Source: Escherichia coli (lineage in GTDB: Bacteria > Pseudomonadota > Gammaproteobacteria > Enterobacterales > Enterobacteriaceae). Taken from it: a DNA stretch of 9,349 nucleotides. The first letter of the stretch is position 1. The number at the start of each line of letters is the position of its first letter. The position numbers and the translations under genes were made by a program. The notes under the pieces are model-generated. The model searched no databases. It saw nothing but the letters and a program-made list of their open reading frames with translations, and was not told the DNA's origin. Of this stretch, positions 4,880 through 7,661 are shown one piece after another. The stretch lies in the NCBI RefSeq assembly GCF_003334315.1, contig NZ_QOWR01000090.1; one strand, written 5' to 3'.

Positions 4880-5761
4880 TCAACGCGGAAACGTTTTAAG
4901 AATGTAATCCCGAACATAGGCGGTTCGGCTGTTATTAGCCGTCCTTTTGTTCCAGACCAGATAAAGATGATTAGTCGGAGCGAGGTCTGCAGGTGTCACT
5001 GAAATCAGGCGACCACTTTTCAGGTCATTGTCACAGTGATAATCCGGCAGCACTGTCCACCCGTGGCCGTCACAGACCAAGTCGCGGATAATACGTAAAT
5101 CCGGAATGGTGAATGTAGCCTGCATCTCAGGGGCTCTCTGAAACATGGAGGCCCAGAGCGCTCTAATCAGTGGCAACTCTTCGTCATAAGCAATCAGCGG
5201 TAATGAGGCAAGCGTTTCAGCACCAGGTTCTGATCCGATGATCTCTGACATGGCGGGAGCATGAACAAGGAGCATGCGTTCAGTCAGTAGATGTGCATAG
5301 CCGTACAGACGGTCATCAGGCATAGATGCGGTAACAGCGAGATCGGCGCTCCCGTCATGCAAAAGGGAATAAATACGTTGCTTATTGCCGGTATGAAAGC
5401 GTAGGCGATACCCCTCCTTCATTAGTGGAGCCATTACTGTCCCAAGCCGGGAATGAATAAAATCTGGCGGTCCTGCCAGATTAATTGTTCCCCCGCGTAC
5501 AGAGCCTGACCGGAAAGAGGACAGCTTTTCTTCCAGACCATCAATGAAGGGTGAAACTGAGCGGGCAAGCTCATCCGCAGCTTCGGTTGCCGTCACGCCT
5601 CTGGCCTGCCTGATAAACAGACGCTTACCAACCAGAGTCTCAAGAGACTGGATATGCTGTGACGCCGCGGGCTGAGTGATGCCCAGTAGTTCTGCCGCCT
5701 TTGAAAAGGAGCCAGAGCGATAGGCCTCAAGAAACGTTCGCAGATGGCTCAGATGGCTCAT
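4880..5761 (-). CDS. LysR-family transcriptional regulator
   Basis: 293-codon ORF; N-terminal HTH region (SFSKAAELLGITQPAASQHIQSLE) typical of LysR-type regulators, followed by a substrate-binding-type domain. Start ATG overlaps the stop of the upstream ChaC gene (ATGA overlap at 5758-5761). Confidence 0.9.
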   Translation of the reverse strand: MSHLSHLRTFLEAYRSGSFSKAAELLGITQPAASQHIQSLETLVGKRLFIRQARGVTATEAADELARSVSPFIDGLEEKLSSFRSGSVRGGTINLAGPPDFIHSRLGTVMAPLMKEGYRLRFHTGNKQRIYSLLHDGSADLAVTASMPDDRLYGYAHLLTERMLLVHAPAMSEIIGSEPGAETLASLPLIAYDEELPLIRALWASMFQRAPEMQATFTIPDLRIIRDLVCDGHGWTVLPDYHCDNDLKSGRLISVTPADLAPTNHLYLVWNKRTANNSRTAYVRDYILKTFPR

Positions 5762-6450
5762 AGTGAAGCGCCTCGCTGATGAAGTTTATCGTTACAGGGA
5801 GCCTCATGCAGAGCAAGGGCCAGTTCACTCACGTAATCATCCCGTATTCCCAACGCACCCAGAGTGGCCTGCAGTTTCCATACATAATCTGCATTCGTGC
5901 CAATGTCTCCACGGGCAGATGCGATGCTCAACGCTACGGTCGCTGTAAGATTGTCCTGTTCATAATGCGGATGCAGTCTGTCTGATACGAAAGCCAGCGC
6001 CTGAATTTCCTCACCGTTTCCTAGCGAAACGTCTGCCCAGACCGGACGGTAAAGACCGGTTATCATCTCGCGCGTCCAGACAATTTCCAGCTCATTAATA
6101 AGAGTCGATTCCGGCAGTCTGAACGCAATACCTTCGGTAATTCCACCTTCGTCGAGCGATAACATCCTGCCGGGGACATCAGGAGTCGCTCGTCCGGATA
6201 TCAAACGAATGCAGAAACTGCGCTGCCATCCTTTCAGACGGGCCCGTTGCATTTCTTCAATCGCCAGCACGGGATTCCACATCAATGACCCGTAGGCAAA
6301 TATCCAGACAGGAGCACCCGTCGGGCGCTCCTCCAGAGTAGAGTTCATTGATGCGCGTATTTTTTCAGCGTCCCAGAGCATATTCGCCGGGAGCAGCGCT
6401 TCATGCACCCTGACAAATGTGCCATTAAGCATATTTTCACGGGTAAGCAT
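5758..6450 (-). CDS. ChaC-family gamma-glutamylcyclotransferase (glutathione-specific type)
   Basis: 230-codon ORF with the ChaC hallmark VWIFAYGSLMWNP and overall collinearity with E. coli ChaC as recalled. SD GGGAGG just upstream of the ATG; 11-bp gap from the MFS stop. Confidence 0.85.
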   Translation of the reverse strand: MLTRENMLNGTFVRVHEALLPANMLWDAEKIRASMNSTLEERPTGAPVWIFAYGSLMWNPVLAIEEMQRARLKGWQRSFCIRLISGRATPDVPGRMLSLDEGGITEGIAFRLPESTLINELEIVWTREMITGLYRPVWADVSLGNGEEIQALAFVSDRLHPHYEQDNLTATVALSIASARGDIGTNADYVWKLQATLGALGIRDDYVSELALALHEAPCNDKLHQRGASL

Positions 6451-6461
6451 ATAACCTCCCT

Positions 6462-7661
6462 TTACTGGCCTACGATTTTAACCTGTTGAAATTTACGACT
6501 GTGGCTGCGACGGATTTGTGCAAGCAGCAACAGCAGGCCGAGCAGAGAAACAATCGCACCGCTGATACCGGTATACACGATACCGGCGTGGCTTATAGTA
6601 ATGCTGCCCAGTACTGATCCCAGCGCTATACCTGAGTTGAAGCCCGCAATATTCAGGCCGGCAGCAACACCATGCGCATGAGGAGCATGTTGCTCAGCGA
6701 CACCAATCAGACGGGCCTGCAGTGCCGGCACTGCGGCAAATGTCACCATACCCAGCAGCGCAACCAGAATGCCCATGCTCACCGGTGAGGATGACAGCAG
6801 CCACATACCAAGCACGACAACAACAATGCCGCTAATGATGAGTATATTGGCACGATTAACCCCCATGCTGTCGGTAAGTTTCCCACCAAGAATATTACCT
6901 ACCGCAGCTGTAATACCGTAAACCAGCATAAACAGACTCACCGTTGCTCCGGTAACCCCTGTCACCTGCGTCAGAATAGGTGCGATAAAGGTGTAATCCG
7001 TAAACGAGCCTGCATACGCCAGCACCGTAACCAGCGCGCCGGCCAGCAACTTACGGTTAAACAGCATGCCGATATTCTGCATTGCTGAGTCACTATGTTC
7101 ACCGGGCACGCTGCGTACGGGATCTTTCATACCGAACAACAGTCCAAGGAATCCGAACGCGCCAAAAGCGGCAATAGCGCCGAGAACTGGACGCCATGAG
7201 ACCACCCCCCCCAACCATGTACTCAGCGGTACGCCGATTGCCATCGCCAGAGTAAAGCCACCAAATACCACAGCCACCGCTCTGCCTGCTTTACCCGGTC
7301 CAGCAAGACGAGCTGCGGTACTGGATGCCGCAGCCAGAAACAGGCCGTGTCCCAGACCAGCAATGAACCGCGCTAACAGGAGCTGAGGTAATGTGGCTGC
7401 AAACGCGGCCGCCAGACTACCGGCAGTAAACACAACGGCAGTTGTAAGCATTACATTTTTCCGGCTCCAGCTTGCTGTCAGCGCAGACAGTACGGGTGCC
7501 GCGAACGTTGCCCCCAGTGCATAGGTTGTAACCGCTGCCCCGGTCTGCTCCACACCCACACACAACCCCTGAGCCATAACGTCTGTCAGCCCAATGGGGA
7601 CAAATTCCGCGAGTCCGAGCGCAAAGGCACTGATAGTAAACACATAAATAACAAATGGCAT
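6462..7661 (-). CDS. MFS (major facilitator superfamily) transporter, ~12 TM helices
   Basis: 399-codon ORF, uniformly hydrophobic and Gly/Ala-rich with periodic TM-like segments; SD CAGGAG 6 nt upstream of ATG. First gene of the MFS-ChaC-LysR operon. Confidence 0.9.
   Translation of the reverse strand: MPFVIYVFTISAFALGLAEFVPIGLTDVMAQGLCVGVEQTGAAVTTYALGATFAAPVLSALTASWSRKNVMLTTAVVFTAGSLAAAFAATLPQLLLARFIAGLGHGLFLAAASSTAARLAGPGKAGRAVAVVFGGFTLAMAIGVPLSTWLGGVVSWRPVLGAIAAFGAFGFLGLLFGMKDPVRSVPGEHSDSAMQNIGMLFNRKLLAGALVTVLAYAGSFTDYTFIAPILTQVTGVTGATVSLFMLVYGITAAVGNILGGKLTDSMGVNRANILIISGIVVVVLGMWLLSSSPVSMGILVALLGMVTFAAVPALQARLIGVAEQHAPHAHGVAAGLNIAGFNSGIALGSVLGSITISHAGIVYTGISGAIVSLLGLLLLLAQIRRSHSRKFQQVKIVGQ

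Follow-up and report, generated by a model that had tools for sequence, protein, structure and literature searches.

Three genes are tightly packed on the minus strand of a 9,349-nucleotide stretch of Escherichia coli DNA (contig NZ_QOWR01000090.1), the whole of which is referred to here as the window. In the order of transcription, they encode a major facilitator superfamily (MFS) transporter, a paralogue of the gamma-glutamyl-bond-cleaving enzyme ChaC, and a LysR-type transcriptional regulator (LTTR). The coordinates of these genes and of the other features discussed are collected in Table 1. An earlier note on this DNA, written from the sequence alone, had pointed to an 11-nt gap between the first two genes and to an ATGA shared by the ChaC stop and LysR start codons (5761-5758), and both agree with the open reading frame (ORF) list and the sequence. 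RefSeq annotates the same three coding sequences (CDSs) as 'MFS transporter', 'gamma-glutamylcyclotransferase', and 'LysR family transcriptional regulator'. The N-termini MPFVIYVF (MFS), MLTRE (ChaC), and MSHL(S/T)HLR (LysR) are shared with orthologues, indicating that the start codons have been called correctly. Ratios of nonsynonymous to synonymous substitution rates (dN/dS) against orthologues are 0.04-0.11 for MFS, 0.13-0.17 for ChaC, and ~0.08 for LysR. Judged by these ratios, purifying selection acts on all three genes, and the low values, together with the matching RefSeq CDSs, mark them as functional genes rather than chance ORFs.

The three genes are probably transcribed together. A consensus scan of the minus strand revealed no promoter-like sites within the operon, and the three weak terminator-like patterns on that strand, all in operon coding sequence, occur at about the chance rate. 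The Shine-Dalgarno sequence of the MFS gene is kept as CAGGAG in five of seven aligned loci. An ATGA overlap between the ChaC and LysR genes is also found in Enterobacter, in the L004 contig, and in a Klebsiella IncF plasmid; one lineage has a 35-nt overlap, and gaps of 95-218 nt separate the two genes in others. Tight gene spacing is thus restricted to the nearest lineage. Overall, the MFS-ChaC-LysR unit is a real and fairly ordinary accessory operon made of familiar parts, with no sign of an unusual mechanism.

The middle gene is a full-length member of the ChaC family, which passed all the sequence and fold tests that were run. Its product matches Pfam PF04752 (E 3.6e-35; residues 48-212 on positions 1-171 of the 176-position model) and, over 216 aa that take in the bacterial N-terminal extension, aligns with K-12 ChaC at 45% identity (E 4e-70). 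In a 59-sequence alignment, the protein retains each of the 30 invariant columns, with W49, F51, Y53-G54-S55-L56, W58-N59-P60, R77, R87, R127-E128-M129, Y134, and Y189 among the conserved residues. The motif YGSLMWNP spans residues 53-60, and the catalytic Glu128 lies inside the REM motif. In ChaC2, the active site comprises Tyr6/Gly7/Ser8, Arg40, Glu83, Tyr87, and Tyr144 (PMC7022552). Mapped by hand from the alignment, Tyr6/Gly7/Ser8/Arg40/Tyr87/Tyr144/Glu83 correspond to Y53/G54/S55/R87/Y134/Y189/E128, so that E128 is the equivalent of ChaC2 Glu83 and of Gcg1 Glu116. The catalytic residues on which the earlier note had made its proposal depend are, consequently, all present. The AlphaFold (AF2) model of the protein (pLDDT 93.1, pTM 0.89) has a GGCT/BtrG-like fold, and its top Foldseek matches are human ChaC2 (6KY1, E 9e-16, target TM 0.85) and yeast Gcg1 (5HWI, TM 0.67).

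About ten clade-specific substitutions distinguish this protein and its closest relatives from other ChaCs, all of them conservative (e.g., I81/L, S85/A, A88/G, and S156/A). Because these changes are few and conservative, the substrate is probably glutathione itself or a compound much like it. Identity to E. coli ChaC and the conservative nature of the clade substitutions also argue for a glutathione-specific cyclotransferase activity, which would release 5-oxoproline and Cys-Gly. In E. coli, overexpression of ChaC lowers cellular glutathione (bioRxiv 10.64898/2026.05.15.725350).

Despite this resemblance, the gene is not the core chaC of the chaA-chaB-chaC locus; the test of orthology failed, and the gene is an accessory paralogue, as the earlier note had held. 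In a neighbor-joining tree, its clade stands apart from K-12 and Pantoea ChaC. K-12 chaC adjoins chaB/chaA, whereas the gene in the window is flanked by the MFS and LysR genes. Among 5,426 complete E. coli genomes, core chaC is present in 5,420 and the paralogue in 305, with copies in carrier genomes nearly always at least 99% identical. A copy covering at least 80% of the paralogue is missing from 17 of the 305 carriers, examples being regional insertion sequence (IS) insertions and half-gene matches. Truncated or internally deleted versions of the protein also circulate (P0008, of 173 aa with 84 member sequences; P0004; and P0006). These disrupted and shortened variants indicate that the paralogue is dispensable in some lineages. 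Contig4 of Citrobacter sp. wls619 carries a second, truncated copy (L026 6001-6393) ~17 kb from its complete module (L007); this copy is 66% identical over residues 1-131 by tblastn, and its ORF ends after 74 aa.

The first gene of the operon encodes a DHA1-like transporter. Its product aligns over the full length of the NCBIfam models for Cmx/CmrA (NF033135), SotB-type, AraJ, and NepI transporters, with bit scores against curated cut-offs of 207/400, 158/401, 139/499, and 110/584, respectively. By these alignments, the pump is related to the Cmx/CmrA, SotB, AraJ, and NepI exporters and is an orthologue of none of the named proteins. Among solved structures, the nearest is that of SotB, a sugar efflux transporter of E. 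coli (6KKI, E 1.4e-26), and all characterized relatives of the pump are exporters. A crude hydropathy scan did not give a clean transmembrane count.

The last gene encodes a regulator that, on its domain matches, is a generic full-length LTTR and not an orthologue of any named regulator. NCBIfam LTTR models match over its full length, the best being ArgP/LysG (88 bits, below the cut-off), and LTTR structures in the PDB match over residues 5-288, the closest being 3HHG (E 2e-14). Orthologues that are 90-91% identical are on record with PF00126 and PF03466, the HTH_1 and substrate-binding domains.

A putative two-site operator lies ~50-100 bp upstream of the pump ATG. The dyad of site 1, itself a copy of direct repeat D1, is perfect in Enterobacter (GTATAAA-N4-TTTATAC), and its core ATAAATA..TTTATACC is invariant or near-invariant in seven aligned loci, which include a Klebsiella locus that lacks ChaC. 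The second conserved block after this core in the seven-locus alignment is ATTATTTTATTTAT, and ATTATTTT of site 2 is invariant across all seven loci. The coding DNA of these loci is only ~65% identical, and the DNA around the operator is not conserved. The motif ATWATTTTAT occurs twice in the 9,349-bp window against 0.04 expected occurrences; both copies lie upstream of the pump in the same orientation, 26 bp apart, and inside a 23-nt direct repeat with 26-nt spacing. At the equivalent position, one of the diverged lineages described below, lineage (c) (L090), has two ATAATTTTAT copies 30 bp apart. A strict T-N11-A LysR box was considered and rejected, because the conserved 7-4-7 dyad has another spacing. 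The layout resembles that expected for an LTTR recognition site accompanied by an activation site near the -35 element, and the co-transcribed LysR protein probably controls the operon and, hence, its own synthesis. The sole promoter-like hit of a consensus scan (-35 at 7773-7768, -10 at 7751-7746) overlaps site 1.

The gene order MFS-ChaC-LysR is found in four diverged lineages, in each of which purifying selection acts on it; this answers the conservation check that the earlier note had called for. Lineage (a) comprises E. coli, the Klebsiella IncF plasmid NZ_LR890357, Enterobacter sp. BIGb0383, and a metagenome contig. Lineage (b) comprises Klebsiella plasmids (e.g., J1 plasmid 1) and Citrobacter sp. 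wls619, with identities to the window proteins of 56% for ChaC, 71-73% for MFS, and 59-60% for LysR. Lineage (c) is represented by K. oxytoca pIron_OXY and identical Logan contigs, with IS110/IS3-type flanks and a ChaC that is ~58% identical, and lineage (d) by one more Logan contig. Between-lineage identities, measured for three of the four lineages, are 56-59% for ChaC and 63-73% for MFS. The blastn boundaries of the shared unit fall at 4811-7902 against L086, 4877-7774 against Enterobacter, and 4880-7754 against L004; homology to the neighboring segments ends at 4831 (BCCT/DUF2254) and begins at 7879 (hok). Flanking genes differ in every lineage, so the unit moves as a block. Found in prophage, plasmid, and chromosomal backgrounds, it is by these comparisons horizontally mobile. 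A general linkage between ChaC and MFS genes was rejected, since a pump and a regulator stand beside ChaC at only two of 80 species-representative loci. These two belong to Enterobacter sp. BIGb0383 and Citrobacter sp. wls619, and the link is confined to one clade.

Pump-regulator pairs without ChaC, in the same co-directional order, occur on large Klebsiella plasmids (MFS 82% identical), in Pantoea, and in Acinetobacter. These pairs indicate that the pump and regulator work alone, as an efflux pair would. They also show that the terminal position of the regulator, to which the earlier note had drawn attention, is not only real but an old trait of the MFS-LysR pair. In the MFS tree, the Klebsiella pair is nested within ChaC-bearing lineages, and on Klebsiella plasmid NZ_CP031818 (L088 8877-8945) the last ChaC bases remain ahead of the LysR ATG, as a comparison with window positions 5758-5772 reveals. 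This nesting and the retained 3' end indicate that the Klebsiella variant arose by deletion of ChaC, and a late insertion of ChaC into an MFS-LysR pair was rejected for this variant on the same grounds. For the Pantoea and Acinetobacter pairs, the choice between ChaC insertion and loss is ambiguous. In the NZ_CP031818 record, two separate CDSs make up the LysR gene, and upstream of the pump there is a divergent DJ-1/PfpI gene.

The window is part of a lambdoid, Rac/Qin-like prophage, in which the module is cargo of the ren-hok/ninB slot. One flank of that slot is formed by a replication-initiator gene, represented by its C-terminal part, and by a Ren-like/DUF977 gene, the other by hok/sok and ninB. 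Five non-phage genes occupy the space between these flanks, namely the three genes of the unit, a DUF2254 gene, and a gene for a BetT-like BCCT transporter. Elsewhere, the same E. coli prophage flanks (slot ~1100-7900) enclose DUF262, sce7726 plus beta-family, QueH plus Doc toxin, or methyltransferase genes, and a further alternative cargo consists of an alpha/beta hydrolase, DUF1627, and an ATPase. Because the flanks enclose different cargo in different genomes, the ren-hok junction is a variable cargo hotspot of such lambdoid prophages. The BCCT-DUF2254 segment (1302-4831) exists alone, as a chromosomal pair of 94% identity of which the window has a second copy, beside acuR near the fec locus (fecE) in many E. 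coli; acuR is the acrylate-utilization regulator, and the pair occurs on plasmids too. Since this segment and the three-gene unit have boundaries of their own, the two were acquired separately, and the prophage cargo is a composite of them. A total of 283 E. coli genomes contain 80% or more of the window.

Both ends of the window are IS ends, which indicates that the prophage piece is bracketed by IS elements. Positions 1-78 are identical to the sequence just past istB of IS100, and positions 9272-9349 match an IS-proximal repeat of many E. coli plasmids. The IS ends truncate the phage replication-initiator gene (ORF 50-607) and ninB (9006-9275). A 74-aa ORF on the plus strand (7942-8166), in a widely conserved segment upstream of hokD, is very rich in cysteine in its C-terminal half (…CRAGSQMCASYCGCNGNLLSCCCSYGSPF); it matches no PHROG, is absent from the RefSeq annotation, and may be spurious. 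The 78-kb E. coli plasmid pPEC1012 (NZ_CP161339, L098) holds all five cargo genes, flanked by Qin-prophage remnants (relB, relE, and ydfV) and IS26, an arrangement that shows IS-mediated transfer of prophage cargo onto a plasmid.

Table 1. Features of the three-gene operon, its proposed operator, and the surrounding prophage segment (window coordinates).
Feature	Position	Strand	Remarks
MFS transporter gene, first of the operon	6462..7661	-	399 aa; ATG 7661, TAA 6464-6462; from the ORF list
Shine-Dalgarno AGGAG of the MFS gene	7668..7672	-	6 nt ahead of the ATG; read from the sequence
MFS-ChaC intergenic gap, 11 nt	6451..6461	-	Holds Shine-Dalgarno GGGAGG, 6460-6455
ChaC-family gamma-glutamylcyclotransferase paralogue	5758..6450	-	230 aa; ATG 6450, TGA 5760-5758
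LysR-type regulator, last gene	4880..5761	-	293 aa; ATG 5761, stop 4882-4880
Putative operator site 1, GCCTTAGATATAAATAATTTTATC	7740..7763	-	Near-palindrome 7757-7740; proposed LysR recognition site
Putative operator site 2, GCCTGAAGTTTACATTATTTTATTTAT	7711..7737	-	Repeats the motif 26 bp downstream of site 1; candidate activation site with overlap of the -35 region
Unit common to other replicons	4811..7902	.	92% nucleotide identity to Klebsiella IncF plasmid NZ_LR890357 (blastn)
DUF977/ren	648-1070		One border of the slot
BCCT transporter gene	1405-3408		BetT-like
DUF2254 gene	3457-4749		Protein matches a PHROG of unknown function
hok/sok type I toxin-antitoxin	8213-8537		Rfam sok, 116 bits, at 8213-8387; Hok ORF 8382-8537

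Relatives of the pump and of ChaC recur beside genes for the detoxification of electrophiles or oxidants or for glutathione-linked detoxification. Pump relatives adjoin DJ-1/PfpI glyoxalase-III-like genes in Klebsiella and in an Azotobacter operon, an Old Yellow Enzyme and the YghU and YfcF glutathione transferases in Cupriavidus, an LLM-class oxidoreductase and frmR-frmA in Acinetobacter, and a catalase-family peroxidase in Pantoea. Members of the same ChaC clade that lie outside the module adjoin FrmR/ADH/GFA and an RND pump at one locus and FrmR, a glutathione transferase, and a tautomerase at another. Others adjoin SnoaL/FMN-reductase operons with Old Yellow Enzyme, luciferase-like, and arylamine acetyltransferase genes, and one adjoins TetR, HxlR, and Old Yellow Enzyme genes. 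These neighbors favor a role in stress, although the pattern is suggestive only. The Azotobacter protein, labeled 'type 1 glutamine amidotransferase', was considered as a Cgc1/PuuD-like gamma-glutamyl hydrolase and rejected, being DJ-1/PfpI / HchA-like; a convergence with Francisella Cgc1 was rejected for the same reason.

Our tentatively favored interpretation is that the locus is a LysR-controlled mobile operon that would serve as an inducible stress module, combining efflux with glutathione turnover, rather than in nutrient uptake. In the proposed mechanism, the LysR protein would bind the two operator sites and, on sensing a small-molecule inducer, activate a single mfs-chaC-lysR transcript; as part of that transcript, it would feed back on its own synthesis. 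The cytoplasmic ChaC paralogue would cut the gamma-glutamyl bond of glutathione, or of a very close derivative, to give 5-oxoproline and Cys-Gly, and the MFS protein would use proton coupling to export either the inducer or a product derived from a thiol. The cassette as a whole could provide an accessory response to thiol-reactive or electrophilic stress. It reached E. coli as cargo of a lambdoid prophage of the Rac/Qin-like kind, in the ren-hok/ninB slot. Efflux and stress are favored over import because the relatives of the pump are all exporters, because the pump-regulator pair persists without the enzyme, and because relatives of both the pump and ChaC recur beside detoxification genes.

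Several points weigh against this interpretation. The direction of transport is proposed from family resemblance alone, with all NCBIfam scores below the curated cut-offs. Glutathione breakdown coupled to efflux has no demonstrated precedent, and a literature search by protein accession and gene combination found no paper on the module. The detoxification neighborhoods are anecdotal, amounting to ~10 loci without a background rate, and such genes are common in accessory DNA. Repression would fit as well as activation, because the predicted promoter overlaps site 1. Finally, import retains some probability because an MFS protein of Francisella, NgtA, imports glutathione.

That precedent speaks for nutrient scavenging, which we nevertheless regard as unlikely. 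Here, the MFS protein would import glutathione or a gamma-glutamyl peptide, ChaC would yield 5-oxoproline and Cys-Gly as a sulfur or nitrogen source, and LysR would induce the operon when the substrate is present. The joining of a transporter and a cytoplasmic cleaving enzyme in one regulated operon fits this scheme, as does NgtA, which takes up intact glutathione for degradation in the cytoplasm. The neighboring cargo gene encodes an uptake-type BCCT transporter, and the carriers are gut and environmental enterobacteria. However, the families nearest to the pump (Cmx/CmrA, SotB, AraJ, and NepI) all export, and NgtA belongs to the unrelated Pht family and is partnered by a glutamine amidotransferase (GATase) rather than ChaC. 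Moreover, intact pump-regulator pairs persist without any cleaving enzyme, related loci neighbor detoxification genes and not sulfur assimilation, and a cytoplasmic ChaC would be unable to distinguish imported from endogenous glutathione. The description of the locus in the earlier note as a self-contained import/efflux-and-cleavage module overreaches, given the intact ChaC-less pairs, and a gamma-glutamyl substrate for the transporter is not supported. That account had also missed the mobility on prophages and plasmids, the conserved upstream operator, and the ChaC-less pairs themselves.

It is also conceivable, though distinctly improbable, that the LysR-regulated pump is the functional unit and that ChaC is a passenger unlinked to the pump's cargo, acting, for example, as a general adjuster of the glutathione pool. 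The ChaC-less pairs of Klebsiella, Pantoea, and Acinetobacter plasmids speak for such a loose association. In the Klebsiella pair, which is nested in ChaC-bearing lineages, a deletion has left only the 3' end of ChaC. Other members of the ChaC clade occupy unrelated operons, and ChaC evolves faster than MFS and LysR. Against this, the MFS-ChaC-LysR order has been kept in four lineages while ChaC diverged to 56-59% identity (three measured), at a dN/dS of 0.13-0.17. ChaC also sits between the pump and the regulator, and is therefore necessarily co-regulated, and in the E. coli lineage it is probably translationally coupled on both sides.

A variant with still less in its favor, and one we consider doubtful, assigns the module to the disposal of glutathione conjugates. 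Within the cell, glutathione S-conjugates would lose their gamma-glutamyl group to ChaC, which would release it as 5-oxoproline, and the Cys-Gly conjugates so formed would leave through the pump. An electrophile-sensing LysR would induce both proteins, and the scheme would be a bacterial parallel to the opening steps of the mercapturate pathway. The proximity of relatives of the pump and of the ChaC clade to glutathione transferases, formaldehyde-glutathione genes, Old Yellow Enzymes, and quinone reductases is consistent with this proposal, as is the exporter type of the pump. In addition, the clade-specific S85 and A88 flank Arg87 of the substrate loop. In contrast, E. coli ChaC has identical active-site residues, and a glutathione transferase is not part of the module itself. 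Characterized ChaC enzymes are reported to be specific for reduced glutathione, which also counts against conjugates as substrates.

Finally, a role in prophage defense, with induced ChaC depleting glutathione to bring about abortive infection against other phages, has almost no probability: the ren-hok slot of other E. coli does hold DUF262, sce7726/beta-family, Doc-toxin, and methyltransferase genes, but a small-molecule LysR with a pump is not a defense architecture, plasmids and chromosomes, too, carry the module, next to genes of metabolism and detoxification, and a defense-system reading was rejected when searches returned no PADLOC match for the five cargo proteins at E <= 0.01, no PHROG family for the ChaC paralogue, no match in a phage collection, and a single identical contig in IMG/VR.

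If the favored stress-module interpretation is true, this would be the first ChaC-type glutathione-degrading enzyme in bacteria to have a small-molecule control of its own and a transporter as its partner. It would offer a handle on the purpose of bacterial ChaC enzymes, a question that is open even for the core E. coli ChaC. As a compact trait that moves among E. coli, Klebsiella, Enterobacter, and Citrobacter, the module could affect the stress and xenobiotic tolerance of clinical and farm isolates. Should conjugates prove to be the substrates, the ChaC family would have a role in detoxification beyond plain glutathione turnover.

The individual parts of the module resemble known systems, whereas their combination on prophages and plasmids, with ChaC lodged between a pump of exporter type and a co-directional LysR that probably regulates itself, is undescribed. 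The ChaC of the window has the length and architecture of E. coli ChaC (b1218), including the ~47-residue N-terminal extension, and no evident signal peptide. With that protein and the wider family (ChaC1/ChaC2 and Gcg1), it shares the YGSLMWNP and REMITG motifs, the catalytic Glu, and the fold. It differs from the core enzyme, which is encoded beside chaA/chaB, in belonging to a separate clade and in being accessory, mobile, and part of an LTTR operon with a pump. The pump aligns end to end with the models of the DHA1 exporters SotB, AraJ, NepI, and Cmx/CmrA and with the structure of SotB.

The regulatory arrangement recalls the logic of LysG-LysE and ArgP-ArgO, as the best models for the regulator are of the ArgP/LysG type and a putative two-site operator lies upstream of the pump. 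In LysR-regulated exporter pairs, however, the regulator is divergent, whereas the LysR gene of the window is co-directional and last, with an enzyme gene between pump and regulator. In the NgtA-Cgc1 system of Francisella, too, an MFS transporter is partnered by a cytoplasmic enzyme that cleaves glutathione at its gamma-glutamyl bond. NgtA is, however, a Pht-family importer whose partner is a class I GATase, whereas the pump of the window is of exporter type and its enzyme is a ChaC. In the NgtA paper, orthologues are reported only in Francisella and related Thiotrichales, a linkage of ngtA and cgc1 is not described, and the Francisella ChaC is described as periplasmic. Like the ren-nin morons of lambdoid (Rac/Qin-type) prophages, the module occupies a strain-variable slot between a Ren-like/DUF977 gene and hok/sok-ninB. 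It differs from such morons in that the cargo is a non-phage composite of two segments and in that the module is also carried on plasmids and chromosomes.

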